Below are positions 8,337 through 51,813 of a stretch of 64,000 nucleotides of DNA, piece by piece. Each line of letters starts with the position of its first letter. Positions within the stretch are counted from its first letter, which is position 1. The position numbers were made by a program, and so were the translations under genes. The DNA is from Escherichia phage a20, in the sequence record OQ067374.1. One strand, 5' to 3'. The notes under the pieces were generated by a model. It saw only the letters and a list, made by a program, of their open reading frames with translations, ran no database searches and had not been told where the DNA came from.

Positions 8337-11048
8337 TCAAAAATCGAACATATCGAACAGAGATGCTTTCTTCTCGTAATCGAGTTTCGCTGCTGATGTG
8401 AATCCTTCAAGTGGTTTAATAAATGTCTTCTCAAGGAGAACAGTGTAGTCCATCCAATGAAGTACGTCGTCTTTAATTAAATCTGTGATTTCAGTGCCAG
8501 AAGGCCATGCGATACATTTATCACCGAATGGGTTTCCTTCACGTAAAGGCAGAACATATACTTTTTCACCTTCTACAACTTGCGGTGCATCGATATTACC
8601 TTTGATAGCCCGGTTATATGTCAGAATTCCACGAATATGGAACGGACATTTGGGACCAGGGAATCCACCTACGTCATATTTAGCAATGTTATTCGCAGAA
8701 GATACCGACGCGATGCTAATATAATTCAATTGGCGGAATTCTTTTTCAAACTCTTTAAAATATTCTTGTAATGATTCTTCACCTTCTTGAAGCATACGAC
8801 GAATACATTCTTTAAGAGCTTTCTGTACTGCTTTAGGAGTCGAAGATTTCTGTGTTTCGAGACCCATGATTTTAAGCTTAGGTTCAGCGTATCTGGTTCC
8901 TTCCATATCCCACACGTTTAATGCATAACGTTTCTTACCAGTCCAGAATCCACCAATACCTTTAGAACCGAGCGGAGGACCAGCGATAGCTTCTCGGTCC
9001 ATGAACATCAAATGTTGCTTATTATTCATGTATTCGCACATTTCACGGAAACCTCTATCAATAGCAGGTTCCATACGTTCACGAGCGAACTTATCTAAGA
9101 AGTCTACCCAATGGTTGGTATCACGGAATTTAGATTCACCAACCTTATCGATAATTTTATCAGCAGATACGTAAATAGAGTCTGTATCACCATATAGAAC
9201 GAAAGCTTCACCTTCTGTACCACAAACTTCATTCAGATATTCATTAACTTTACGTTCAATCCACTGTAAAGCCATTTGACCAAATGTTGTGATTGCAGTA
9301 GCATTACGCAAATCATAATAACGGAACCAAACGTTGCCAAGTGCACCATAAAGTGAGTTGATAAGCAATTTACGGTTAATCTGTGCAGTCATACCTGCAA
9401 CTTCAGTACGTTGAGCTCTAAACAACATTTCATTAAGAGATTTAGCAGACAACTTTTTAATCTTTTCTTTAATCTCATCACTGAAGTCGAAACGATAATC
9501 AACATCTAATGGTTCGTCAACAGAAAGATTAGGATTATGCAATGCCTCTTTAATTATTTCACCATTACGTTGAGCTGCAAGCATGTAACCTTTATGTTCT
9601 TTACGTTGATTAAAGACCTTAGTGATTTCAGTTGGAACTACACCATCACGGTCTTTATAATACATCATGCCGTTAGGAGAGCAACTGTACACATCTGAAG
9701 GACGTTCAGCGATTGCGTTAATATAATCATGCAGTGGAGCTACTTTAAACGTTCCTGCTATTGTTTCCGGGCTAATATTCACTTGGCGAATAATACTTGG
9801 ATACAGAGATGTAAGGTCGAAACTCATTACATATTTGTATCGATTTGGAATAGGTTCCTTAACAAAAGCGCCAGGATAAGGTTGAACCGGGTGAGAACGA
9901 CCTTGTGGAATCACCTTGTTCTGCTCTTTAAGGCTATTAAAAATAATAGCATCCCATGTTTTAATTGGACTGAACACAGATTGAATCTGAATTTTAGCAT
10001 AATAACCCATGTCCAAGCTCAAGTTAATGAACTGGCGTTTAGCATCAATTTGCAATACACGATATACGTCGATGATGTTATAGCTTATATATCGTTGATG
10101 ATTACTTTCGCGAAGTTTAGAAATAGGACCGTCATATTTCAGTTTACCAACGTTCAATTCAAATTCTGAAATGTAATCCAGAGAATACGACGGTTGATTG
10201 GTAAAAGAGAATTTTTTGTAAAGGTCAATGTAATCAAGAACAGAGATACCGAACAATGTAATGATTTCACGAGAACCATACATGTTTTCGATAACTTTAA
10301 CACGAGTTTTACGATGCGGTGATAAACGTTTCGCAGTAGATTCGCCAAAAATATTCTTGATTCGGTTATACACATATGGAATATCAAATGACTCAACGTT
10401 CCATCCAGTCAAAATGACAGGAGTTTTCTGTTGCCAGAAGTTGAGATATTCCATCAACAATTCTTTTTCGTTATCGAACGGCATATAAATGATTTTATCG
10501 ATAATTTCAGATGGAACTTCATCACCGCCTTGTTCTTGAAGCTTAGCAGCGATTTCAATAGACCATTCTTCTACATTACCATACGGAGAATTCAATAGAT
10601 CAAATACGTAGAACCTGTCGTCAATTGAGTCATAATGGGTGATAGCATCAATCGGATGTTTTGCTTGTGACGGCTCAGGGAACCCATCCGGAGATGTTAC
10701 TTCGATGTCGAAGTTAGCCACACGAATTTTTGTATGGTCGTATTTGATTTCATAGTTATAAGTGTCAGACAAATACGCCAATTTGAAATCGTCCATGCCA
10801 AGTGCTTCAAGTCCGATATCTTCCATGCGTTTAATCCATTGGGAGGCATCACGCATATTAGCGAACAACTTACGAGTACACGGTTTACCGTAGATATCGA
10901 AATATTTCGTAGCCTGACTTTCTGGACAATGAGCAAACAGTGATGGTTTATATTCTACTTCACGAGTACGTTCACGGCCATTAGAATCGATGTAACGTTC
11001 AAAAATTGAATCACCAATCTGTTCAACCGTTAAGTAAAATTCTTTCAT
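8337..11048 (-). CDS. 43: DNA polymerase (family B)
   Basis: 903 aa; exonuclease FDIE and polymerase YGDTDS motifs; reads as RB69 gp43 from memory. Confidence 0.97.
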   Translation of the reverse strand: MKEFYLTVEQIGDSIFERYIDSNGRERTREVEYKPSLFAHCPESQATKYFDIYGKPCTRKLFANMRDASQWIKRMEDIGLEALGMDDFKLAYLSDTYNYEIKYDHTKIRVANFDIEVTSPDGFPEPSQAKHPIDAITHYDSIDDRFYVFDLLNSPYGNVEEWSIEIAAKLQEQGGDEVPSEIIDKIIYMPFDNEKELLMEYLNFWQQKTPVILTGWNVESFDIPYVYNRIKNIFGESTAKRLSPHRKTRVKVIENMYGSREIITLFGISVLDYIDLYKKFSFTNQPSYSLDYISEFELNVGKLKYDGPISKLRESNHQRYISYNIIDVYRVLQIDAKRQFINLSLDMGYYAKIQIQSVFSPIKTWDAIIFNSLKEQNKVIPQGRSHPVQPYPGAFVKEPIPNRYKYVMSFDLTSLYPSIIRQVNISPETIAGTFKVAPLHDYINAIAERPSDVYSCSPNGMMYYKDRDGVVPTEITKVFNQRKEHKGYMLAAQRNGEIIKEALHNPNLSVDEPLDVDYRFDFSDEIKEKIKKLSAKSLNEMLFRAQRTEVAGMTAQINRKLLINSLYGALGNVWFRYYDLRNATAITTFGQMALQWIERKVNEYLNEVCGTEGEAFVLYGDTDSIYVSADKIIDKVGESKFRDTNHWVDFLDKFARERMEPAIDRGFREMCEYMNNKQHLMFMDREAIAGPPLGSKGIGGFWTGKKRYALNVWDMEGTRYAEPKLKIMGLETQKSSTPKAVQKALKECIRRMLQEGEESLQEYFKEFEKEFRQLNYISIASVSSANNIAKYDVGGFPGPKCPFHIRGILTYNRAIKGNIDAPQVVEGEKVYVLPLREGNPFGDKCIAWPSGTEITDLIKDDVLHWMDYTVLLEKTFIKPLEGFTSAAKLDYEKKASLFDMFDF

Positions 11049-11129
11049 TTAATTTCCTTTAGACGAGTTATTGTCTTTTGTTTGTTGATGAACTTATTAT
11101 ACTCCAAATGGGACCGAAGTCCCATTGCT

Positions 11130-11498
11130 TTAATTACCAATTGTATATTTTGCTTTCAAAGTCCAGTCATCTTTCTGTTTAAAAGAGATAACACGAAAGT
11201 TATTAGTCAGGCCAAACAGATCTTCACGAGCAGAGTCTTCAATAACAATCAAGCCCCAGTCTTCAAGCAACTGGGCAATCGAATCACGTCGCTGATAGTC
11301 TTCACCGTCAATATCAACCTGACGTCCATCCATACGCAACATTTCTTTAAAGTGGACGATGTAATATTTACCTTGCTTTTGGAGTATATGACAGGACTGA
11401 TAAAGGACTTTATCCTTGTTATTAGCGATGCCCATACGGGTCAAAGTCTCTTTGACTTTCAGAAAATCTTCAGGGTTCTTCAATTTAATTTCGATCAT
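11130..11498 (-). CDS. regA: RegA translational repressor
   Basis: ORF track gives 11130..11507; T4 RegA begins MIEI..., so start set at the in-frame Met at 11498; strong match to T4 RegA. Confidence 0.9.
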   Translation of the reverse strand: MIEIKLKNPEDFLKVKETLTRMGIANNKDKVLYQSCHILQKQGKYYIVHFKEMLRMDGRQVDIDGEDYQRRDSIAQLLEDWGLIVIEDSAREDLFGLTNNFRVISFKQKDDWTLKAKYTIGN

Positions 11499-11500
11499 TT

Positions 11501-12064
11501 TTACCATTCCAATGCTAATTTTTTAAATTGTTTTTGTTCTTTCACATTTTTTGTAACTTCTTTGAGAAACTCATCAGTGACCATGGCCTTCAGTTCTTTA
11601 AGGACTATTGGCAACTTGTTATTTTTTTCAAGGAGCCGCTTATACTCGGTAGCATCATTCATGTTGATTGTGTAATGTTTCATCAACAGTTTGATAACTA
11701 GTAACTCTGAAGTGTCTTCAACTAGTTTAGCCCATTTAGAGAATCGACGACCACGCGGAATTGCCGCCATCATATAGTTGAAGTGTGCTTCATCACTTAA
11801 TTCAGAACCGACTAAGTTCATCATGTAAACAGCTGGCATACATTCCGGGAACTGGGATAATGAGTTCTCAACCATAAATTTTGAGTAGTCGACCTGAGCA
11901 ATTGACATAGATTTCTTTTCATTAATAGCATTAATGATTTTAAAGAATTCATTCTCAGGTTTTTCTTTAAACATATCAGCACATTTTTGAATCGCATCAG
12001 CGTCATTAGACTTCCATGCAATTTGGTGCTCGTTAAGCCGGACGTCATCATCGAATAAGTTCAT
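11501..12064 (-). CDS. 62: clamp loader small subunit
   Basis: 187 aa; synteny 45-44-62-regA-43 and similarity to T4 gp62. Confidence 0.9.
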
Positions 12065-32966: not shown

Positions 32967-32997
32967 ATTTACCTCAAGTTAAGGGTTATTTATCTAT

Positions 32998-33984
32998 TTA
33001 TTTATAGTAAGAATTATGATTTTCGAGATAGACTTGCTCAAGGAAATCATCCCAGAAACTCATATCTACTTTTTGTTGCATACCGTTCTTAGCGGCTTGT
33101 TCCGATGCTTGTTCAACTTGGTCAACGATATCTTCTAGGAATTCTTGTACAGTTTTAAACGTATGTTTACCAAGCTTAACATCGAGAATAAATGGAGCAT
33201 CCTGAAGTGGGTAAACTAAGTCGCCGGTTTTGTAAATTTCCAATAGTTGAAGTCCACCACGACATGCATGACTCAATGCTTTCCAGTCAATACCTTCGTT
33301 GGCTTCCGCCTTACGAGCACGTTCACCGTAGTTCTCTTCCAGTTTAACCAGGATGGCATTGAACTCTTTATTGGTTAACGTATCTTGGAATTTACGGTCT
33401 AACAGATTATAGAATGTTTGCTTACCTGTTTTCTCGTTTTCGGTTTCAACCCACGAAGCAAATTCACCTATAGGCAGAACATTCTTCATATGTGATAAAC
33501 GAATTACTGCACCATTATCAAAGTATTGTCCCCATTCATTAGAACGTTTAAGGGCTTGACGAAGAACAGCCAGTCGAGAACCCTTGACACCGTATTTAGA
33601 AGCTTGCTTACGGACATACCCTAAATAAGATTTCATGTTAGTGGTATAGAAACGAGACCTGTTATCTTGAATATACTTCCATACATCAGGCAAATCAGAT
33701 TTAACTACTAGACTTTGTGGAGTGTGAAGCATATCTAATGCGACGGTTTCACCATCTGCAGCTAGTTTAAAGAAATATTTGAGACTATATAACTCATGGT
33801 CTACGTCGTCTTTTGTGTTCTTAGAAGATGTGTTATTCGTGTTCTTGCTCATGTGTTCTTTAACGTTACCGGTCAAGATATCACGAGCATGAGGGACATA
33901 AATTTCTTTAAAATCAACGTCAGATTCAGGGGTAGACGTTCCATAAAGGTGGCTACCAAAGTAAGCCTTAACAATCGTTTTCAT
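32998..33984 (-). CDS. Pol-beta-superfamily nucleotidyltransferase-like protein
   Basis: 328 aa; N-terminal GSHLYGTSTPESDVDF fits the GS-x(9-13)-DxD nucleotidyltransferase signature. Confidence 0.5.
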   Translation of the reverse strand: MKTIVKAYFGSHLYGTSTPESDVDFKEIYVPHARDILTGNVKEHMSKNTNNTSSKNTKDDVDHELYSLKYFFKLAADGETVALDMLHTPQSLVVKSDLPDVWKYIQDNRSRFYTTNMKSYLGYVRKQASKYGVKGSRLAVLRQALKRSNEWGQYFDNGAVIRLSHMKNVLPIGEFASWVETENEKTGKQTFYNLLDRKFQDTLTNKEFNAILVKLEENYGERARKAEANEGIDWKALSHACRGGLQLLEIYKTGDLVYPLQDAPFILDVKLGKHTFKTVQEFLEDIVDQVEQASEQAAKNGMQQKVDMSFWDDFLEQVYLENHNSYYK

Positions 33985-36965: not shown

Positions 36966-37178
36966 TTAATTTTGGCCAGTATTTATTTTTCGCCTTTGGA
37001 CGGCCTTAACATCTGTGAGGTATTTTTCCAGCTTGCGCTTGCGTGTATAATCAGCTTTAGAACCAGTTTGACGGATATCCTCGTTTAAATGAGAAATAGA
37101 ATGTCCTAATTCTCTTCGGATTTCATCCAATTGGGTTACAGTAAGATTACGAAGTTGTCTTTCGTTTAATTGCTGCAT
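36966..37178 (-). CDS. hypothetical basic protein
   Basis: 70 aa ORF. Confidence 0.45.
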
Positions 37179-42150: not shown

Positions 42151-42322
42151 TTAGTTTCTCTTTTAGGTTGGGCCATTCCGTGGCACATGTTAGGTCCTTC
42201 GACTCGCTATGTAAACCCATTACCGCATTGCGCTCGACCTTATTACAGGTTGGAAAAGGTACATCACTCAGAGGACTCGACGTTCATGAGGAGAGGTTGC
42301 GTTTCCCTTTATTAGGCAAGAA

Positions 42323-42652
42323 TTATACTCTAGGCTTTTGAGCTTGTTTGGTATTGGATTCCCATGCGGCTTTGGTAATTTTGTTAGCGGCATAACCAAA
42401 GGCATTAGATAGAACACCTTTAGAGTTGAATACATCCAATCCAATAAGTACACCGGCTGTGTTAAATTTAGGAGCAAAGTACGCATTAGTTTTAGAAAGA
42501 GCTTTTTTCAATTCAGGGTCTTGAACCAAGCCATCAAAAACGCCTTTACTATTTACTTTGTATGTTACTTTGGGATTTTTACCTTCTTCGATAGCAGCTT
42601 TCTGTTCCGCAGATAATGTAACTTCAGTGATAAACTCCTGATATGTTTTCAT
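42323..42652 (-). CDS. internal-protein-like head protein with capsid-targeting N-terminus
   Basis: 109 aa; N-terminus MKTYQEFITE matches the T4 internal protein capsid targeting sequence. Confidence 0.6.
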   Translation of the reverse strand: MKTYQEFITEVTLSAEQKAAIEEGKNPKVTYKVNSKGVFDGLVQDPELKKALSKTNAYFAPKFNTAGVLIGLDVFNSKGVLSNAFGYAANKITKAAWESNTKQAQKPRV

Positions 42653-42677
42653 TTTGTTCCTATTGTTTTAATTTATG

Positions 42678-42992
42678 TTATTCTTTAGGGAAGTTTTTAG
42701 AGTATGCATCATAAAGTTTATTACCAATACGACGGAAGACTTTAGCTGCAAAACGGTTTTCAGGGTTTTTAATCATGATTTGCATCATGTAAGTTCCTGC
42801 ATCCGAAAGAGCTTCTTCATAGTACCCATTAATTTCTTTAAGAGTCCTACGTTTACCACCAGGACCGTCAACAGTAATTTTCCATTTACCTGTAGAAGTG
42901 CGGCTCGGTGGCTCAACTTGTTCAATCCAAATATAACCACCTTCAACGCGTTGGTTGGCGGATTCTGCAATAAATTCTTTATACGTTTTCAT
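42678..42992 (-). CDS. internal-protein-like head protein with capsid-targeting N-terminus
   Basis: 104 aa; N-terminus MKTYKEFIAE. Confidence 0.6.
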   Translation of the reverse strand: MKTYKEFIAESANQRVEGGYIWIEQVEPPSRTSTGKWKITVDGPGGKRRTLKEINGYYEEALSDAGTYMMQIMIKNPENRFAAKVFRRIGNKLYDAYSKNFPKE

Positions 42993-43055
42993 TTTTGTTT
43001 CCTTGTTTGTTTTGATAGAGTAATTATACCATATTAATACTTAAGCGTAAACAAT

Positions 43056-43316
43056 TTAAGCTTTACCGCCAGAAATAATTCCGAAGTTGTTAAAATCATA
43101 TCCAATATCGTCAACATCTACTTTAGGACTTGCTACAACATAAGCAATTTCACTACGTTTTGCATAGGTGTTGATTTCTTTACCATCGCCACCTAAGAAA
43201 GAATACCCATTACGTTTTAATGAGCCAAAGTCTTCCGCATCACCAATGAAAGCTTTAACTTTAAATTTAGGACCTTTGGCATCTGCTTCAATGATAAATT
43301 CTTGATACATTTTCAT
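43056..43316 (-). CDS. internal-protein-like head protein with capsid-targeting N-terminus
   Basis: 86 aa; N-terminus MKMYQEFIIE. Confidence 0.55.
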   Translation of the reverse strand: MKMYQEFIIEADAKGPKFKVKAFIGDAEDFGSLKRNGYSFLGGDGKEINTYAKRSEIAYVVASPKVDVDDIGYDFNNFGIISGGKA

Positions 43317-43322
43317 TTTTCC

Positions 43323-43736
43323 TTAGTAAATTGATTTACCATAGTATTTGTACCAAGTCGGACGTTGAGCAATTTTTTCATCTAAGCGTGCTTGACTTAT
43401 CGCAATGGACGCTTCGGACGGGACATAATTATTACGAAATTCGGCAGGGATGTCGGAAATATCCTGGACTGTCGTGTCCTTGATTTTGAAACCACGTTTC
43501 AAACATTCAGCGATTAGCTCGATTTGACGTAAACGTAAAAATTCGAGTTTGTCGTAAAAGAATGTTACGTGACCTGTGCCTAAGATAAATGTTGGAGAGA
43601 TTTTAAAATCCTTTACACGTTTACCGTTTTGAACATGTTTACGGACTGCACCAAATACGCGTGGTAATTCACGATACTCAGCCATAAGATGTTGGTCGGA
43701 CAGTTCAGAAACAAGTGTTAAATTGATACGAGTCAT
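43323..43736 (-). CDS. denV: endonuclease V (pyrimidine dimer DNA glycosylase)
   Basis: Track ORF 43323..43748; start set at MTRINLTL (T4 DenV N-terminus); GGAGGAAATT precedes the ATG. Confidence 0.93.
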
Positions 43737-43738
43737 AA

Positions 43739-43793
43739 TTTCCTCCAAGTAGTTGATGAATGTATAGTATCAAAGTCCTTGGAGGAAGTAAAC
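43739..43793 (-). promoter_or_regulatory. promoter cassette with SD-sequestering inverted repeat upstream of denV
   Basis: Minus strand GTTTAC (plus 43788-43793), 18 bp, TACTAT (plus 43764-43769); 10-bp inverted repeat TTCCTCCAAG / CTTGGAGGAA includes the denV SD. Confidence 0.5.
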
Positions 43794-43794
43794 A

Positions 43795-44076
43795 CTATTT
43801 TTCTGAAGCGCCTGAAATATATTTTTCAAGACGTTGTTTCATTAGCGAGCCGTTCTTAGCGATTTCTTCCGGTTTATCGCACATACGCAACAATGCTTCA
43901 AGCTTAACGATATCGCTGGTGCGCTCAAATTTGCGAGTGTCTATCTTACTAGCAAGTTCAGAAATACGTGCTAATAGACTTTCAGCTTCAACCAAAGCTG
44001 CACCTAGCTTAGTTGCAAATGTGTCAGTAGCTTCATTAAGAATAGATTCTGATAAAAATTCACTATATGTTTTCAT
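43795..44076 (-). CDS. internal-protein-like head protein with capsid-targeting N-terminus
   Basis: Track ORF 43795..44091; start set at [10 protein letters not shown] (44076). Confidence 0.55.
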
Positions 44077-44561
44077 ATATACGCTTTCCAAGTTCCTGTT
44101 TTAAATGTTGAGATTACGCGTTTCGCGCGATTAGGTGTCTGACGATACCATTTAGATTGGGCGAGATTTACTGCCGCCTCGTCCCAACGTTTCTGTTGAA
44201 GCATACGAAGAGAATTAGTAAAACCAGCGACGCCTGCTACACCCATTTGGAAGACCATATTGACCAATGCACATCGACGAACCGCATCTAAAGAATCATA
44301 TACCGGTTTAAGTTTAGCATTACCCAAGATTCCGCGAACGGCTTTATCAACGTCTTCATTAAATAGCTTTTCAGCCTCATCAAGGGTAATTGTACCGTTG
44401 CATTTACGACCGATCATTCTGTCAAGTTCAGCTTTAGCTACGGCTAAAGACGGATTCTTTGTTACTAAATGGCCTATGCCAATCGTCCAAAAGCCTTCAG
44501 TGTCTTTGTATAAAGTCAGTCTAAGACCTTCGTCATTACGAAGCATTTCAAATATATTCAT
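44073..44561 (-). CDS. e: lysozyme (endolysin)
   Basis: Start set at [15 protein letters not shown] (T4 lysozyme N-terminus); catalytic Glu and Asp context conserved. Confidence 0.95.
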
Positions 44562-44562
44562 A

Positions 44563-44588
44563 ATACCTCCCACGTTTATAGGAGGTAT
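44563..44588 (-). promoter_or_regulatory. hairpin sequestering the lysozyme SD, with late-promoter-like loop
   Basis: Inverted repeat ATACCTCC (plus 44563-44570) / GGAGGTAT (44581-44588); the minus-strand loop reads TATAAACGTG, close to the T4 late promoter TATAAATA; same architecture as described for T4 gene e. Confidence 0.5.
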
Positions 44589-44595
44589 TTATTAC

Positions 44596-45054
44596 TTATA
44601 GGAGGGTAGTGAGCACCTTATATAATGATTTGCCCATTACATATTCCCATTGAGAAGGTTTAATTAAAGCGAATGCATCAAATTCAGGAATCTGACGTCC
44701 GTCTGGGAATGTATGATAGGAATTACAAACACTATTTCTGAATTGCTCGTGCTCTACAGGGATGGTATATAAGAACAGATGAATATTCTTATTGTCTGAG
44801 TAATGATGTTCACCTAGGTCTTTCAGGAAGGCAGGGTCATATTGTGTAAACCCAGTTTCTTCTTCGCATTCACGAATAGCGGCTTCAATAGGAGATTCGC
44901 CAGGTTCGACACGGCCTTTAGGAATATCCCACCGATGAGCTAAAGAACCTTTAGGACGAGAACCAGTTACACGCCCCATGAATAATTCTTTATCTTCGGT
45001 AAGGAAAATAATACCGGCTGATAGTTCTTTCACTTTATTTTTCTTACTCATCAT
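44596..45054 (-). CDS. nudE: Nudix hydrolase
   Basis: 152 aa; Nudix box GRVEPGESPIEAAIRECEEETG. Confidence 0.85.
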   Translation of the reverse strand: MMSKKNKVKELSAGIIFLTEDKELFMGRVTGSRPKGSLAHRWDIPKGRVEPGESPIEAAIRECEEETGFTQYDPAFLKDLGEHHYSDNKNIHLFLYTIPVEHEQFRNSVCNSYHTFPDGRQIPEFDAFALIKPSQWEYVMGKSLYKVLTTLL

Positions 45055-45295
45055 CTCGGTCCCATGATTTGGCCATTAATTCGGACATAAATTCTTCAAT
45101 GCGCGTTTCTTTAGATGGACTTTCACTATTAGAGACCGCAAGTTTGTAATCTGCAATAGGACAGAACATATCAAGGTCCATATTAAGATCGTCTTTGATT
45201 TTTTCTTCTGACACATCTTTATCGTATGTGTACAGATAACTATCACATGATTCTGATTTAATGTAAATTGCTATACTCATCTCAAATTCCTGCAT
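45044..45295 (-). CDS. hypothetical acidic protein
   Basis: 83 aa ORF. Confidence 0.45.
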   Translation of the reverse strand: MQEFEMSIAIYIKSESCDSYLYTYDKDVSEEKIKDDLNMDLDMFCPIADYKLAVSNSESPSKETRIEEFMSELMAKSWDRDDE

Positions 45296-45756
45296 TCGGT
45301 AATAAAACGTTCAACTTCATTATTCTTGGCCTTTATCTTGTCTTTACGTTCTTGTAAACTACTTTTAACAAGATTAATAATGATGCCTACAGTACCTCCA
45401 CCAATAATACCACCAATAATACTTACAATAGTAGATGCTAATAAGATAGCGATAATATCTAGTACAGCAAAGGCACTTACTTTAGTACTAAAAAACCATA
45501 CCGACGGTACAAATATAATCCATCCTGTTATCCATTGGCACTTATTGAAAAACTTTTCAAGCTCAGCTTGGGTTGTTCGTATTACTTCATCGATAGGTTG
45601 ATATCCATTAATGTATCTGTTCACGATAATACCTGCTGGCTGGTTGATTTTAAATTCTTGGCAAATATGTTTCACTAAGTAGGATGGACATCCTGTCCAA
45701 TCTACTGAATAGTATGAAATACCTTCGTCGCCATCGTCTATATTATTGTTAATCAT
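45277..45756 (-). CDS. membrane protein
   Basis: 159 aa; hydrophobic helices with a GGIIGGG segment. Confidence 0.5.
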   Translation of the reverse strand: MINNNIDDGDEGISYYSVDWTGCPSYLVKHICQEFKINQPAGIIVNRYINGYQPIDEVIRTTQAELEKFFNKCQWITGWIIFVPSVWFFSTKVSAFAVLDIIAILLASTIVSIIGGIIGGGTVGIIINLVKSSLQERKDKIKAKNNEVERFITECRNLR

Positions 45757-46259
45757 TACCAGCCTTCCATAGGGAATTCCAGATAAACTTGGGCATTGAC
45801 ACGAATTTCATTGGTAATCTTTTTAACTCGGTCTGTATTACGAGATACACGTCCGAACCAACGCCATCCGTTACTAATTGCACGAGAACCAGTGTGCCAT
45901 GTTTGCCAATCAAACTGAAGAAGAGTACGATCTGGAGCTTCCCATTCAGTGTTTAAACAACAAACAGACCATGTAGGAGCAACGAAATCGGTGAATCTAA
46001 TATCATGGTCTGCAACTAGTTTAGCAATAGCTCCGATATCATGAATCATAATACCTGGGGCTAATAAAGATTTTCTGCTATGGCTAGCCGTTTTCTCGGT
46101 GGTCTCATAAGAAGACGACCAGTACCATTTACGTCCAGTTGCAACATATCGTAATGAATCAACTAAAGACGTAGGTGGATTTACCTTATCTCGGAACTCT
46201 TCGAACATTGAGTCAATATCATTATTTTGGTTTCGCATGTTAACTCCTTTATTATCCAA
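45756..46259 (-). CDS. hypothetical protein
   Basis: 167 aa, Trp-rich; no motif recognised. Confidence 0.5.
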   Translation of the reverse strand: MDNKGVNMRNQNNDIDSMFEEFRDKVNPPTSLVDSLRYVATGRKWYWSSSYETTEKTASHSRKSLLAPGIMIHDIGAIAKLVADHDIRFTDFVAPTWSVCCLNTEWEAPDRTLLQFDWQTWHTGSRAISNGWRWFGRVSRNTDRVKKITNEIRVNAQVYLEFPMEGW

Positions 46260-46287
46260 AAGGAGGACCGGAGTCCTCCGTATTATT

Positions 46288-46881
46288 TTATTTCAAAGAG
46301 TTAATATATTCTTGTACATCAGCAGAAGTGGTTTCGACGCCGGCTGGAGTGCCATTGAACGTTTCAACACGAGTCAGAGTGTCTTCGATATCAACCTTAG
46401 TCAGTGCAGCTATTTCAATTACATCATCGGCCGTAGAGATACCAAGGGCATTGGCTGCTCGAGTTTCACGAATGTATTCGAGTTTGATTGCCAGGTTCTG
46501 ACGAGCATCGTCAAGTTCAACCACCTTACGAGCAATTTCAATTCGCATAGCGGCATACCCGTCAGCCTTTGTATTAAGTTGTTCGGCAGTTCGACGATAC
46601 AGAAGACCAAGCTTAGCATGCATGGTAACATCTTGTCCTTCAGCCAGGAGCTTACGAATTTCACGTTCCTTAGAAGCGGCTTGCTTGTTCTTTTCATTAA
46701 CAAGTTCGCGAATACGTTTTTCTTCATTAATAGATTTAACAGAAGCCGTTTTTAGTTCTTTGATTTGGGTAATCAACTTATCTGCAGCTGCGTTATACTG
46801 TTCTTCGACAGTCAGATTTTTAGCCATAGCAGTACCCAGTTTAGTGCGGATGAATTCGACAAGTTTCTTCAGTGTGTTCAT
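46288..46881 (-). CDS. coiled-coil protein (possibly PspA/IM30-like)
   Basis: Track ORF 46288..46896 starts at a non-ATG codon; set to ATG at 46881 (MNTLKKLV) with AAGG upstream; long amphipathic helices. Confidence 0.5.
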
Positions 46882-46922
46882 ATTATTACCTTTCAATTGG
46901 TGGTTTATTATCCAACGAGAGC

Positions 46923-46952
46923 ATTATACTCTGCTCTCAAGAGTTTGTAAAT
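46923..46952 (-). promoter_or_regulatory. promoter-like cassette with -10 in a hairpin loop
   Basis: Minus strand ATTTAC, 18 bp, TATAAT (plus 46923-46928) inside hairpin GAGAGC/GCTCTC; a variant copy at 20906-20935 has stem GAGAGA/TCTCTC (compensatory change). Confidence 0.4.
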
Positions 46953-47179
46953 TATTTTTTAATCAAATTGACATAAAACTTGGCGTCTTCGGGGTGCATG
47001 CCTTCGCAGTATTCTTCAACCATGAACTTCTTAACAGCTTCATAAGGACCACTCAGATTAAGCTCAGTTGTCCAGAACTTGGAATCTTGGACTGAATCGA
47101 TACGAACTTCAGGGTGTCGGTTGCGAATAACTTCTTCGGTGTATTCATAATCAACGACATCAATACTAACTTTAGCCAT
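46952..47179 (-). CDS. hypothetical acidic protein
   Basis: 75 aa; AGAGGAAAACAAA precedes the ATG. Confidence 0.5.
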   Translation of the reverse strand: MAKVSIDVVDYEYTEEVIRNRHPEVRIDSVQDSKFWTTELNLSGPYEAVKKFMVEEYCEGMHPEDAKFYVNLIKK

Positions 47180-47207
47180 TTTGTTTTCCTCTTGATTTGA
47201 TAGGACT

Positions 47208-47237
47208 ACTATAACATAAACTTACTTAGATGTAAAT
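47208..47237 (-). promoter_or_regulatory. early-promoter-like element
   Basis: Minus strand ATTTAC (plus 47232-47237), 18 bp, TATAGT (plus 47208-47213). Confidence 0.4.
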
Positions 47238-47390
47238 TATTTCAACGTCACCTTTAGCTGCTTTATAACCTTCAGCCCAAGATACAACAGAGTTTTTATC
47301 TGAGGATTCAAATTCAGGCATTGGACTTTCACCAATATTCACACAGTATGTTTCTTCATTTTCATCGAACCAAATAATTAAAGTAGTCAT
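47226..47390 (-). CDS. hypothetical small protein (not on ORF track)
   Basis: 54 codons from ATG at 47390 with GGAGTAAACAAA upstream; hand translation MTTLIIWFDENEE... Confidence 0.3.
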   Translation of the reverse strand: MTTLIIWFDENEETYCVNIGESPMPEFESSDKNSVVSWAEGYKAAKGDVEIIYI

Positions 47391-47420
47391 TTTGTTTACT
47401 CCTCTGTAGTTGATAAGTCT

Positions 47421-47450
47421 ATAGTATCACCATCCTTGGTGCTTGTACAT
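47421..47450 (-). promoter_or_regulatory. early-promoter-like cassette with spacer hairpin (PeSL-like)
   Basis: TACTAT (plus 47421-47426) and ATGTAC flank hairpin CACCA-TCCT-TGGTG, a variant of the 28483 and 29503 hairpins. Confidence 0.4.
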
Positions 47451-47458
47451 CATTATTT

Positions 47459-47764
47459 TTAATTTTTCCAACTTAACAACTTGTAGTGTCCTTCATTCAT
47501 ACGTGGTTTATCCCAAGAAATACTAATATATGATTCACTGTCAATAGAAATCGCCGGGTTTTTCTCTACCGTAAGACCTTCACTTTCCAGCCATTCAATA
47601 GTATTTGCGCATAAATCGGAAGAACACCTCATCGGGAACCGGCAAGATTTTTCACCTTTAGCTGCAGTGTTATACATCTTTTCTAAAATACGCTTTTGCA
47701 CGTTTTTAAAAATAGTTTCAGCAGATTCTTCAGATTTTTTATTCAGTTCAGTGTAAAGACTCAT
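47459..47764 (-). CDS. hypothetical protein
   Basis: 101 aa; GAGGAGAATATT precedes the ATG. Confidence 0.5.
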   Translation of the reverse strand: MSLYTELNKKSEESAETIFKNVQKRILEKMYNTAAKGEKSCRFPMRCSSDLCANTIEWLESEGLTVEKNPAISIDSESYISISWDKPRMNEGHYKLLSWKN

Positions 47765-47792
47765 AATATTCTCCTCTGTGGTTGATAAGTCT

Positions 47793-47821
47793 ATAGTATC
47801 ATGTCCTTAGAAGAAGTAAAC
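47793..47821 (-). promoter_or_regulatory. early-promoter-like element
   Basis: Minus strand GTTTAC (plus 47816-47821), 17 bp, TACTAT (plus 47793-47798). Confidence 0.45.
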
Positions 47822-47852
47822 ATCTTTATGAAATATTTTTATGCCCTAGATG

Positions 47853-47881
47853 CCAAAAAGCCCCAACCATAAGGAAGGGGC
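47853..47881 (-). terminator. rho-independent terminator (same hairpin family as 36621-36644)
   Basis: GCCCCAACCATAAGGAAGGGGC preceded on plus by GCCAAAAA, giving a U-run after the hairpin on the minus strand; immediately downstream of the 47888..48352 gene. Confidence 0.55.
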
Positions 47882-47887
47882 ATTCTA

Positions 47888-48352
47888 TTATTTAATTTGT
47901 TTAGCAGACCAGATACGGTCTTTAATAAGTTTTTGGATATCTTCAACATACTCAAGGCTATGAGCGTGAGGATTATCTTTGAAGCTATGTGCTCGTGCCA
48001 GTTTCTGTCCTTCTGTTTTGATTACTAAAAGCTCTTTAAGAATTGCTTCATACTTAGAAATAATTCCTTTGGCGATATTTTTTTCTTGAGCTGCTTTAGG
48101 GTCCGCTTTTGGCGCAGGTGCTTTACCTGTAGCTTTCTGGAACAATTCACCTGATGCAGCTAGGCTTTTAAAAACTCGGCTAACAGTATTAGCATTAGTA
48201 AAACCTTCGGCTTTAAAATCTCTAATAAAACGGAAACGTTCTTCATCAGAGGCGTCTTTGTAAGAATATTTACCTGCTTGAATTGCTGCAATCGCAGCGG
48301 CTTTTACATCTGAACTAGATTGTTCAGTCAAAAATTCAGCGTATGATTTCAT
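47888..48352 (-). CDS. internal-protein-like head protein with capsid-targeting N-terminus
   Basis: 154 aa; N-terminus MKSYAEFLTE. Confidence 0.55.
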   Translation of the reverse strand: MKSYAEFLTEQSSSDVKAAAIAAIQAGKYSYKDASDEERFRFIRDFKAEGFTNANTVSRVFKSLAASGELFQKATGKAPAPKADPKAAQEKNIAKGIISKYEAILKELLVIKTEGQKLARAHSFKDNPHAHSLEYVEDIQKLIKDRIWSAKQIK

Positions 48353-48394
48353 GTTGCTTTTCCTAAGTTAATTAACTTATCTATTTATTATTAT

Positions 48395-48425
48395 GCCAAA
48401 AAGCCCCAACCTTTCGGAAGGGGCT
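48395..48425 (-). terminator. rho-independent terminator (third copy of the hairpin family)
   Basis: AGCCCC-AACCTTTCGGAA-GGGGCT (plus 48402-48425) with GCCAAAAA on its plus-strand 5' side; separates the RNA-gene region from the internal-protein gene. Confidence 0.55.
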
Positions 48426-48477
48426 AAGCCTTGCGGCAACCTTGTCGGGGTTTCCACCTGCTAAGGCAAGTGTTTGT

Positions 48478-48569
48478 ACGAAACGCCGGGATTCGAACCC
48501 GGTTATTAAGCAGTTGACGCTACTCAATATTTTTAAAAGGCCATATCTCGACCATATCCGAACGTTCCG
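48478..48569 (-). ncRNA. tRNA-like element / possible stable RNA or tRNA remnant
   Basis: Minus strand has a canonical T-arm CCGGG-TTCGAAT-CCCGG and a 3' acceptor strand CGTTTCG that can pair with CGGAACG about 85 nt upstream, but the D and anticodon arms do not fold canonically. Confidence 0.3.
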
Positions 48570-48737
48570 TCAAAAACGCTACTCGGCTTACGGCAAAGAT
48601 ATTTCCTCGAATCGATAATTCTGTGCGCCGTTTCTGCTGTGATGTAAGGGGATATTAACAAATCGTAAAGATTTATTAAGACCAGTCCTTACTCAGGGAA
48701 CATCAGTCCGACGACTTACCGGTAGCGACCCGGCTTC

Positions 48738-49082
48738 TTATTTTGGCATATCATCAATTTGCTCTCGACGCCGACGCCATAGATTAATCGCTTCATTAAC
48801 ACATTCGGCGTTTGGTATATGACGGCAATAATATAATGATTCGCGTTTCTGGAATCGATGTTGCAATGGGATTTCGTTTAAAAGGTCTTTACGGTCAAAG
48901 TATTCAAAACTAGTTAACCCGTAACGATTTTTAATGAACTTCCAATGTCCAAATTCATTTTGAACATAAATGTAATCGGCATGCTGATACAGCGAATTAA
49001 TCAATCGATGAGAAATAACTGTATCATATTCGTTAAAATAAAACGTTAAATCATGAACTACCAGATAAATATTGCCTTTCAT
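48738..49082 (-). CDS. hypothetical protein
   Basis: Track ORF 48738..49130 would overlap the tRNA; start set at the internal ATG at 49082 (MKGNIYLVVHD) with GAGGAAAAT upstream. Confidence 0.5.
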   Translation of the reverse strand: MKGNIYLVVHDLTFYFNEYDTVISHRLINSLYQHADYIYVQNEFGHWKFIKNRYGLTSFEYFDRKDLLNEIPLQHRFQKRESLYYCRHIPNAECVNEAINLWRRRREQIDDMPK

Positions 49083-49100
49083 ATTTTCCTCACTTAAAGT

Positions 49101-49177
49101 TGGTCGAGACAGAAGGATTCTAACCTTCAACCTACGGATTAGAAGTCCGTTGCTCCATACAATTGAGCTATGCCTCG
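49101..49177 (-). tRNA. tRNA-Arg (anticodon TCT)
   Basis: Hand fold of 77 nt: acceptor CGAGGCA/TGTCTCG, D-stem GCTC/GAGC, anticodon stem ACGGA/TCCGT with loop CTTCTAA, T-stem GAAGG/CCTTC, discriminator A, encoded CCA; T-loop is TTAGAAT (non-canonical). Confidence 0.65.
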
Positions 49178-49183
49178 AATATA

Positions 49184-49257
49184 TGACCCAGACCAGATTC
49201 GAACTGGTAACCTTTCCCTTATGAGGGGACTGCTGCTAACCATTGAGCTACAGGGCC
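49184..49257 (-). tRNA. tRNA with CAT anticodon (Met, or Ile if lysidine-modified)
   Basis: Hand fold of 74 nt: acceptor GGCCCTG/CTGGGTC (one mismatch), anticodon loop CTCATAA, T-arm ACCAG-TTCGAAT-CTGGT, no encoded CCA; D-arm imperfect. Confidence 0.5.
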
Positions 49258-49336
49258 TAAATAACTTTCTATTATGAAAGGCACTTTAGAGCACCTTTGG
49301 TAATAGAGGGTACGAATTAATAATAACACATAATTC

Positions 49337-49852
49337 TTAAAGCAAATCAATCATTTTAACAGTCGGCAAAACAATTTCTTCTTCAATATAAGCGAATTCA
49401 ACACGTTCAACTACACGCAAGAAATCATAGTCGTAGTATTCAGAAGCATAGCCAAGAATATCAATAAGTCCTTGAGATATCTCATCGCCTTTCACAAAGA
49501 ACAGGTCGAATACACGCGATTCGTCTTCTTCAGATTTATTACCAAGGTCGACTTCAATATCAAAGACCTTTTTAATGAATTCTGGATAAAGCTGGTCTGA
49601 GAACAGCCCTTCAACCAAGTATTCATAGATTAAAAGCGAGCAATCACTGAATGGTGTATTACCACAGTAACGTTCAGCTTTAGTGCTGGAATGACGACTC
49701 TTAAATTTCTTCAAGAGATATTTAAACTGTTGGAGCTCATGCTCTTCCACACCAAATAATGTTTTGGTTTTATAGTTGTCGCCGTCATTTTCCCAAGTAG
49801 TGACATCAATTACGTAACCCTTAGGAATTGTACTGCCTAAACAAATATTCAT
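49337..49852 (-). CDS. hypothetical acidic protein
   Basis: 171 aa ORF. Confidence 0.55.
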   Translation of the reverse strand: MNICLGSTIPKGYVIDVTTWENDGDNYKTKTLFGVEEHELQQFKYLLKKFKSRHSSTKAERYCGNTPFSDCSLLIYEYLVEGLFSDQLYPEFIKKVFDIEVDLGNKSEEDESRVFDLFFVKGDEISQGLIDILGYASEYYDYDFLRVVERVEFAYIEEEIVLPTVKMIDLL

Positions 49853-49856
49853 TTAC

Positions 49857-50147
49857 TCACCGTACCATATTAATGTAATTATATTCAATGCAACGTAATT
49901 TCAAAGGATTCTTGAAAATATCATATTCAAGAGGGCCTTTTTCTGTTTCAATAAAGAAATCAAAGTTAACTGTGTTAAATTTATCATCTTCACAGAGTAA
50001 TTTAACCTGTGAAGATGAACGGTCGATATAAACCTTTTCAACCTCAAAGTTAGTCAGAATACCGTAGTCATCGACTAGTGCTTTAGCTGCACGTTGATCG
50101 CTTTCATATCCATTCTCAATGGACGATACTTTAGCATAAAGAATCAT
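49857..50147 (-). CDS. hypothetical protein
   Basis: 96 aa ORF. Confidence 0.5.
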   Translation of the reverse strand: MILYAKVSSIENGYESDQRAAKALVDDYGILTNFEVEKVYIDRSSSQVKLLCEDDKFNTVNFDFFIETEKGPLEYDIFKNPLKLRCIEYNYINMVR

Positions 50148-50524
50148 GAATGTTCCACCACTTCAAAAGTATGTGCACTGACAATCTGGTACCAGTCAAA
50201 ATTTTCTTCAGCATTTTTGTAGATTTCACGAAGAGCTTCAACAGTTTTTCCTGTAGCAACAAGATCGTCAATACCGCCAAGAGGATAACAGTCGTAACCA
50301 GCAAACAGAAGGAAATTAATAGTTTCTGTAGGTTCTGGATGCAGAATACCGTTATCATCTACCACTTCAAAGAAAGTGTAAGAAGGAGTACAAGTTTTAA
50401 TCCAAGCCCATGCTTGAGCCGCTGAATCAAATGGTCTGCGTATCAAACGACAATCATGGTCTTTAGAAGGATTTGCTTCAAAATCCGCATATACATGATA
50501 TTTCATTTTACCCACCTTTTGCAA
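50144..50524 (-). CDS. hypothetical protein
   Basis: 126 aa ORF. Confidence 0.5.
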   Translation of the reverse strand: MQKVGKMKYHVYADFEANPSKDHDCRLIRRPFDSAAQAWAWIKTCTPSYTFFEVVDDNGILHPEPTETINFLLFAGYDCYPLGGIDDLVATGKTVEALREIYKNAEENFDWYQIVSAHTFEVVEHS

Positions 50525-50714
50525 TTTTATCCATAACGATAGCGATTAAGCCGATTAGAAATGCTACTACCAATGAGATAGAATTTTCTGTTGTTGTCAG
50601 TAGTCCACAAATGAATCCTACAAACATCGAAAAACTAAAAGCCATTGAAGCAATTACTACAGCAACATTACGAATCAGTTCAGCGCGTTTCATTTTATTT
50701 CTCCATTTACTCAT
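50508..50714 (-). CDS. small membrane protein
   Basis: 68 aa; two hydrophobic helices. Confidence 0.5.
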   Translation of the reverse strand: MSKWRNKMKRAELIRNVAVVIASMAFSFSMFVGFICGLLTTTENSISLVVAFLIGLIAIVMDKIAKGG

Positions 50715-50723
50715 TTGTTTTGA

Positions 50724-50760
50724 TAGGACTACTATAACATAGTCCTATCAGCATGTAAAC
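50724..50760 (-). promoter_or_regulatory. early-promoter-like cassette with hairpin
   Basis: Minus strand GTTTAC (plus 50755-50760), 18 bp, TATAGT (plus 50731-50736); inverted repeat TAGGACTA/TAGTCCTA identical to the 36000 element. Confidence 0.45.
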
Positions 50761-50763
50761 TAC

Positions 50764-51051
50764 TTACAGAAGAGTTTTTGCAATAATTTTAAGCTGAGCT
50801 ACAGAAATATGCTTAGCTTTAAACAGTGCAGTCTCTTCAGCCGGAGAGATAACAATAGTAGCGCCATCTTTCTTAGCAGACCATCCATCCCCTAAGTAAA
50901 CAGTACCTTTTACTTCTTCGCCGTCAACCAGGCCGATCATTGGTTTACCCTCACGTCCTTTATTTGCTTTAATAACTTCGGAAGTAAGGGTTGCTTCGGT
51001 TAGAGTAGAAACGTTAGCATCAGGTGATATAAATTCTTTATAGGTTTTCAT
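50764..51051 (-). CDS. internal-protein-like head protein with capsid-targeting N-terminus
   Basis: 95 aa; N-terminus MKTYKEFISPD; AAGGAAATAAA precedes the ATG. Confidence 0.55.
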   Translation of the reverse strand: MKTYKEFISPDANVSTLTEATLTSEVIKANKGREGKPMIGLVDGEEVKGTVYLGDGWSAKKDGATIVISPAEETALFKAKHISVAQLKIIAKTLL

Positions 51052-51085
51052 TTTATTTCCTTGAGGTCGTTTATTTGATAGGATG

Positions 51086-51115
51086 ATAGTAACACGCCAT
51101 CATCCTTATGTAAAC
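51086..51115 (-). promoter_or_regulatory. early-promoter-like cassette with hairpin
   Basis: Minus strand GTTTAC (plus 51110-51115), 18 bp, TACTAT (plus 51086-51091); inverted repeat AGGATGAT/ATCATCCT flanks the -10. Confidence 0.45.
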
Positions 51116-51127
51116 TGTTTTGTGAAA

Positions 51128-51813
<686 letters not shown>

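Follow-up and report, generated by a model that had tools for sequence, protein, structure and literature searches.

What are six genes doing in a T4-like phage when they share the first residues of their products and little else? The question is raised by a 64,000-nucleotide stretch of Escherichia phage a20 (sequence record OQ067374.1), hereafter the window, which belongs to a Mosigvirus (RB69-like Tevenvirinae). Six minus-strand open reading frames (ORFs) in these 64 kb start with MK.Y.EF[IL], the beginning of the capsid-targeting sequence (CTS) of the T4 internal proteins (Ips). We concluded that the six genes very likely make up the Mosigvirus Ip set, and that their products would be packaged, processed and injected, because the targeting residues are present in all six and an (I/L)-x-E motif occurs where it is expected. 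The finding of six such genes is correct; the gene class, the leader, the variability and the anti-restriction role are already published. All six ORFs listed by a sequence-only reading of this DNA were present at their coordinates on the minus strand. We named them w1 to w6 in coordinate order.

w1, 42323..42652, minus strand: 109 amino acids (aa), leader MKTYQEFITE, the same as RB69ORF123c
w2, 42678..42992, minus strand: Ip10 family, 104 aa, leader MKTYKEFIAE
w3, 43056..43316, minus strand: 86 aa, leader MKMYQEFIIE, the same as RB69ORF125c
w4, 43795..44076, minus strand: Ip5 family, 93 aa from the ATG, the same as RB69ORF127c
w5, 47888..48352, minus strand: 154 aa, leader MKSYAEFLTE, between the rnaC homologue and the next gene
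w6, 50764..51051, minus strand: ipI, orthologue of T4 internal protein I (precursor of a GmrSD inhibitor), 95 aa
Locus 1: w1 to w3 downstream of denV, w4 between e and denV
Locus 2: w5, about 3.8 kb away, after the rnaC homologue
Locus 3: w6, beside 57B

The genes had been described as a single array, and are in fact split over these three loci. Those of loci 1 and 3 lie in known ip loci (e-denV-vs.8 and trna.4-57B); w5 is outside both. The range of 86-154 aa that had been given for the bodies turned out to be that of the total protein lengths.

We scanned the whole window in six frames for MK.Y.EF[ILVM] and observed 6 sites only, each being the first ATG of its ORF. The number of leader matches expected by chance from the composition is 0.003, and none was found in 200 shuffles. 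M1, K2, Y4, E6 and F7, together with I or L at position 8, are present in all six genes. The equation of this leader with the T4 CTS held good: T4 IPII and IPIII start with MKTYQEFIAE, and T4 IPI starts with MKTFKEFTS...ITE. The glutamate at position 10, which had been part of the proposed consensus, is found in five of the six genes and is missing in w6 (MKTYKEFISPD...LTE). The latter is of the T4 IPI variant, in which the cleavage motif ends at residue 19.

An unguided repeat search of the window recovered the leader codons and the ribosome-binding site as a repeat family (D1/D3). The shared N-terminus might be a DNA-level module for translation initiation or recombination with no function in packaging, some of the genes then encoding early cytoplasmic accessory proteins. 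The extension of repeat D1 upstream into the ribosome-binding site, the early-type promoters before w2 and w6, and the cassette junctions located at the leader are in line with such a module. However, the leader copies differ by synonymous codons (ACA/ACG/ACC, TAT/TAC, GAA/GAG, ATC/ATT/ATA, TTA/TTG), and therefore it is the peptide that is the conserved entity. Conservation at the amino-acid level also extends to homologues, in which the leader is intact even when the bodies are just 36-54% identical. Moreover, the (I/L)-x-E cleavage motif co-varies with the leader, the same 10 residues package foreign proteins in T4, and T4 ip genes have early-type promoters as well. We therefore regard a DNA module devoid of packaging function as extremely improbable.

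In T4, a foreign protein enters the prohead core when it carries just the first 10 residues of IPIII; targeting depends on residues 4 and 7 of the leader, which are aromatic, and processing by gp21 on residues 8 and 10 (PMC9026906). About 1000 Ip molecules are present per head and are ejected with the DNA (PMC9026906; PMC3012670). By motif matching, the (I/L)-x-E sites of the present genes are ITE, IAE, IIE, LSE and LTE ending at residue 10 in w1 to w5, and LTE ending at residue 19 in w6. The pathway of these proteins would be as follows. The CTS of about 10 residues would bind the scaffolding core, as in T4, and so place the protein inside the prohead. The prohead protease gp21 would then cut the leader after (I/L)-x-E, at residue 10 in w1 to w5 and at residue 19 in w6. 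The predicted mature proteins (76-144 aa, 8-16 kDa) would be kept in the head with the DNA and ejected with the genome into the next host. Being there before any phage gene expression, an Ip could neutralise first-line defences. Four of the six genes (w2, w3, w4 and w6) belong to families annotated as internal head proteins.

Several points weigh against this interpretation. None of the six genes is directly preceded by a canonical late promoter, TATAAATA. The predicted mature w3 and w4 have isoelectric points (pI) of 6.3-6.4, near neutral and unlike those of the basic T4 Ips. We found no virion proteomics of Mosigvirus Ips in the literature. Genes for gp21 and the scaffold lie outside the window; that the phage has them is taken from the known core genome of T4-like phages. 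The bodies of w1 to w5 gave chance-level matches only in Pfam, NCBIfam and PDB, and a fold search with w5 gave no functional clue. Finally, Silas et al. observed no reproducible inhibition when ip4 to ip10 were assayed against further GmrSD variants (PMC12373910). As for the promoters, T4's own ip genes are likewise without a directly upstream TATAAATA, and therefore its absence here does not count against the interpretation.

The mature w1, w2, w5 and w6 are basic (pI 9.0-9.7), like T4 IPI, IPII and IPIII. Packaged proteins of this kind could chiefly serve head assembly or DNA condensation, as histone-like filler or as a scaffold accessory, and not anti-defence. Besides the basic character of four of the six mature proteins, it speaks for such a role that head assembly is slowed and polyheads build up in T4 mutants of IPIII, and that the Ips, at their copy number of about 1000 per head, touch DNA phosphates with their lysines (PMC9026906; PMC3012670). 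However, T4 can do without its Ips on laboratory hosts, each of these Ips has a GmrSD target of its own, and w3 and w4 are not basic. Bodies that are mutually unrelated and swapped between close relatives are also more in keeping with an arms race than with conservation for a structural role. We consider a primarily structural function of the six proteins quite unlikely.

The gene for which a particular anti-defence function can be proposed is w6. Its residues 20-95 match the Pfam family IPI_T4 (PF11634) over model positions 1-76 of 76 (1e-49, 166.8 bits against a cut-off of 25), and match PDB 2JUB (IPI*, 76 aa) at 2.3e-41; none of w1 to w5 matches IPI_T4 (PF11634). As both matches start at residue 20, the mature boundary of w6 is placed immediately behind residue 19, the last of the LTE. 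Records that contain w6 number 290 and call its product an internal head protein or a nuclease inhibitor, and the IPI homologue of RB69 has been explicitly noted (PMC13326640). IPI* inhibits GmrSD(CT596), and Ip2 and Ip3 inhibit GmrSD(ECOR21) and GmrSD(ECOR17), respectively (PMC12373910). Because its mature region is 93% identical to T4 IPI*, w6 very probably inhibits a type IV restriction enzyme of the GmrSD type.

Directly upstream of w6 is gene 57B (51128-51583, minus strand), which matches the Pfam family Acb1 (anti-CBASS protein) at 1.3e-58; Acb1 is a nuclease. The adjacency of two anti-defence genes, 57B (Acb1) and w6, fits an anti-defence neighbourhood.

That diversified CTS proteins are injected anti-defence effectors, as had been suggested for this set, is the standing published view (PMC3012670, PMC9026906, PMC4122927), also that of Rao & Black 2010 and reportedly of Repoila 1994. 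Silas et al. (2025) reported that T4 Ip1, Ip2 and Ip3 each inhibit a distinct GmrSD type IV enzyme, with no cross-protection (PMC12373910). Srikant et al. reported that IPIII is needed to infect ECOR17, and that leaderless IPIII rescues infection (PMC9391042). By analogy, w1 to w5 would most likely each encode an inhibitor specific to another defence protein of the host; the most probable targets are type IV enzymes directed against modified hydroxymethylcytosine (hmC) DNA. The failure of ip4 to ip10 to inhibit reproducibly makes it possible that w1 to w5 have targets other than GmrSD, or no anti-defence role. It would also agree with some of the six being injected effectors of host takeover, acting on host physiology and not on defence. 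Alt is a precedent, since it is packaged via the same route and modifies RNA polymerase (PMC9026906). Yet the bodies, at 76-144 aa, have no detectable enzyme domain and reside in hypervariable, dispensable-looking cassettes, and all three of the small Ips characterised so far are restriction inhibitors. A takeover role for some of the genes appears unlikely, and an anti-defence role of the injected proteins is preferred.

We compared the bodies with each other by BLAST from residue 13 on and found no pair with E<0.1 among the six, which bears out the statement that they are unrelated. The same comparison with T4 IPII and IPIII gave no match for w1 to w5. Paralogy of w1 and w2 was considered and rejected. 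Both match phrog_3966, and the hhalign probability for their full-length family profiles is 92%, which drops to 0.2% without the first 10 residues; therefore, the leader alone joins w1 and w2. Word-indexed homologue searches returned 2-10 clusters for each protein, so that the alignments were of limited depth. Prediction of the body structures, which had been proposed as a check, gave an unusable AlphaFold2 model for w2 (predicted local distance difference test (pLDDT) 49, from 4 sequences) and a moderate one for w5 (pLDDT 74.7).

The published view of T-even internal proteins, with the families Ip4-Ip13 and variable ip loci, is reportedly that of Repoila 1994. Against this background, w2 and w4 could be assigned to named families. 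Full-length identity of w2 to the Ip10 proteins of SP18 and VR25 is 72-73%, on which ground we placed w2 in the Ip10 family. It occurs in 189 records from Mosigvirus, Tequatrovirus, Gaprivervirus and Karamvirus, in some of which it is called an internal head protein, and its mature form has a pI of 9.6. With the products of the genes annotated ip5 in T2 and RB32, that of w4 shares 47.6% identity over 90% of its length (E 1e-15), and w4 was placed in the Ip5 family. It also matches phrog_3499 ("internal head protein") at 1e-46, and was found in 496 records. In VR25, ip5 is likewise placed between e and denV. The w4 ORF in the program-made list reaches a TTG at 44091 and overlaps lysozyme e. The start is likely the ATG at 44076 and not the upstream TTG; this ATG overlaps the e stop codon (ATGA), and w4 is predicted to be translationally coupled to e.

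A family label without an Ip number was found for w3, which matches phrog_2667 ("internal head protein") at 7e-21. It is present in 217 records, some of which have the internal head protein label; its ATG is 6 nt past the denV stop codon, and the mature pI is 6.4. As for w1, it is 98% identical to RB69ORF123c and was found in 90 phage records. Among the matches listed it is labelled "hypothetical" in all annotated records, save one evidently mis-annotated Dhakavirus record. The Dhakavirus homologues (36-39% identity) have the leader intact. The predicted mature w1 has 99 aa and a pI of 9.7, and profile and sequence searches gave no Pfam or PDB relative of the protein.

Some of the existing labels for this region are of little use. 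In the record of Escherichia phage vB_EcoM_ESCO10, the product names look wrong for this region and the annotations are unreliable: Ip-like genes neighbouring denV are named RNA polymerase ADP-ribosylase, and small ORFs are named DNA ligase or baseplate proteins.

The locus around denV varies between close relatives. The slot of w1 is occupied in Shf125875 by an IPII-like gene (93% identity to T4 IPII) and in Escherichia phage ChristianSchoenbein/Bas46 by an IPIII-like one (92% identity to T4 IPIII). In a three-way alignment of this slot, homology spans the promoter, the ribosome-binding site and the leader codons, breaks right after them, and returns shortly before vs.8. In Shf125875, the IpII-like body is placed behind the counterpart of the region upstream of w2 in the window. 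Gaprivervirus VR25 is annotated e-ip5-denV-ip10-ip-ip7, and Dhakavirus AnYang has five leader-bearing genes around denV. The set had been called larger than usual; this did not stand, as the leader-bearing genes of the corresponding region number six in Shf125875, seven in Bas46 and three in T4. These arrangements suggest that the genes are exchangeable cassettes, in which body swaps would rely on the homology of the shared promoter, of the ribosome-binding site and of the DNA coding for the CTS, and in the case of w5 also on that of a duplicated terminator hairpin. Such cassette exchange has been described for the ip loci of T-even phages and for hyperplastic regions in general (PMC4122927).

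A 172-nt non-coding spacer (42151-42322) separates w1 from vs.8, and part of it also occurs in Bas46. Rfam gave no match to the spacer, and shuffled sequences are predicted to fold more stably than its RNA (z +2.3). The spacer may be a remnant of an earlier cassette.

The remaining gene, w5, is the one outside the known ip loci. It matches phrog_2280 (function not annotated) and was found in 511 phage records, about 400 of them Tequatrovirus at 60-80% identity; in every annotated record among the matches listed it is called "hypothetical". An exhaustive HMMER search with the leaderless body recovered 8 representative relatives among 1.84 billion proteins. Judged from their sequences, these are apparently all T4-like phage proteins and fragments. 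All three full-length relatives retrieved (48-60% identical over the matched stretch) have CTS-like N-termini; they start with MLKFNEFLAE, MLEYSEFLKE and MKFKEFLIE, and in some relatives a conserved N-terminal helical module is joined to differing C-termini. The AlphaFold2 model of w5 is all-helical with two domains. A Foldseek search with this model found nothing in PDB (best E 0.27, template modelling (TM) score about 0.2), and in BFVD it found the protein's own family only.

Upstream of w5, 350 nt are nearly identical to T4 rnaD plus rnaC. The stretch 48425-48735 (minus strand) is a near-identical homologue of these T4 stable RNAs (species 2 and 1), for which no Rfam family scored above threshold. 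The gene is bracketed by two copies of a 32-nt direct repeat (D8):

48393..48424, minus strand: terminator hairpin of the rnaC homologue, the upstream copy
47850..47881, minus strand: the downstream copy of the hairpin

The two copies are 91% identical. T4 has a single hairpin and no gene here, which is an exact empty site, and AR1 and the window represent the filled site. It looks like the w5 cassette was inserted or deleted through recombination between the hairpin copies. In Bas46, an extra leader-bearing gene (10995-11558 of its stretch; 187 aa, MKTYAEFLTEAAKLPSE...) adjoins the w5 homologue. This gene is annotated as hypothetical and is not present in the window.

From the above data, w1 and w5 may be Ip families that lack annotation as such, and w5 may mark a third Ip locus that was possibly not recorded before. 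A more far-reaching proposal, which we put forward tentatively as one possibility, is that w1 (the RB69ORF123c family) and w5 (the phrog_2280 family, in >500 T-even genomes) are unrecognised families of packaged and injected effectors. The site after rnaC would then be a third ip locus with cassettes moving via duplicated terminator hairpins, and the effectors could be aimed at defences beyond the GmrSD variants assayed so far, e.g. enzymes recognising arabinosyl-hmC DNA.

We also looked at how the genes might be transcribed. Early promoters of the T4 type were found at three places close to the genes:

43023..43051, minus strand: T4-early-type promoter TTTACG-17-TATAAT directly upstream of w2, 10/12 matches with a TG extension, in repeat D2
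51086..51114, minus strand: T4-early-type promoter with an internal inverted repeat, of the promoter-early stem-loop (PeSL) kind, upstream of w6, in repeat D2
50731..50759, minus strand: second PeSL-like early promoter immediately downstream of w6, from the promoter scan, in repeat D2

The PeSL-like repeat family of early promoters has four copies in the window (43007-43057, 47192-47242, 50715-50765 and 51070-51120). Two of them flank w6, both with internal inverted repeats, and one precedes w2. The same GTTTAC..TAnnAT layout of early promoters is found in T4 for ipI, ipII, ipIII and denV. For late transcription we observed the following sites:

44586..44593, minus strand: late-promoter-like AATAAATA upstream of lysozyme e, where T4 has TATAAATA
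48382..48389, minus strand: late-promoter-like AATAAATA before w5, its start 37 nt ahead of the ATG

AATAAATA is a one-mismatch variant of the canonical TATAAATA. All four minus-strand copies of it in the window (44586-44593, 48382-48389, 36980-36987 and 32995-33002) are located 25-35 nt before a gene start. In AR1, the equivalent position at the w5 homologue is taken by the canonical TATAAATA. A TATAAATA is also found inside gene 1, as in T4. Judging by this placement, AATAAATA may work as a late promoter in this phage. We found no minus-strand terminator-like site between 44600 and 42300. Late transcription from the e promoter could pass through e, w4, denV, w3, w2 and w1, because w4 is coupled to e, w3 follows denV after 6 nt and no terminator-like site lies between.

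The wider setting is that of a relative of T4. A 10 kb query around the six genes matched 982 phage records, the best match being Escherichia phage BEU50 (98.7% identity over the full length), followed by many Mosigvirus genomes at 96-97%. The G+C content is 35-40% all along the window. Gene order is T4-like: vs.8, denV, lysozyme e, nudE, the stable RNAs and tRNAs, trna.2-4, ipI, 57B, 57A and gene 1. Genes for tRNA-Arg(tct) (49101-49177) and tRNA-Met(cat) (49184-49257) are on the minus strand. The program-listed ORF 48738-49130 overlaps tRNA-Arg, and therefore its true start is farther downstream; 345 nt are annotated in relatives.

As Ips act before phage gene expression, they help to set the host range of T-even phages, including Mosigvirus strains under development for therapy and biocontrol. 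The practical value of the present analysis is limited to annotation, in that two widespread families now called "hypothetical", those of w1 and w5, deserve the label of candidate internal proteins. Both could also be included when type IV restriction and other defence systems are screened.

We finally compared the set with known systems. DarA, DarB and Hdf of phage P1 resemble Ips in that they enter the head while it is being assembled and are injected for the protection of the incoming DNA (PMC12810830). Compared by description only, they are unlike w1 to w6 in their unrelated sequence, their much larger size and their other route of incorporation. There is also a parallel, in arrangement, with the early-promoter cassettes of T4-like phages. 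The PeSL cassettes are said to have been described by Arbiol 2010. Comeau 2014 treats them in T4-like hyperplastic regions (PMC4122927). In the window, promoters of the form TTTAC(A/G)-N17-TAnnAT flank w6, precede w2 and form a repeat family; w5 is flanked instead by the duplicated terminator hairpin.

Among the families Ip4-Ip13, w4 is a relative of Ip5 (48%) and w2 of Ip10 (72%), and VR25 shares the order e-ip5-denV-ip10-ip-ip7. No Ip name was found for w1 and w5 among the records compared, and w5 is outside the two classical ip loci. T4 IPII and IPIII are like w1 to w5 in having the CTS with a cleavage motif that ends at residue 10. They share the neighbourhood around e and denV, and are small, basic and non-essential. 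Unlike w1 to w5, they have bodies with no detectable similarity to these proteins, and IpII- and IpIII-like genes fill the w1 slot in close relatives. T4 IPI is the counterpart of w6. The host phages differ, as the phage carrying w6 is a Mosigvirus, a genus whose type member RB69 has arabinosyl-hmC and not glucosyl-hmC DNA (PMC13326640). Like w6, T4 IPI has a 19-residue propeptide that ends with (I/L)-T-E, an equal length, an early promoter with an inverted repeat and a position between trna.4 and 57B, and the two proteins are 87% identical over 95 aa and 93% in the mature part.

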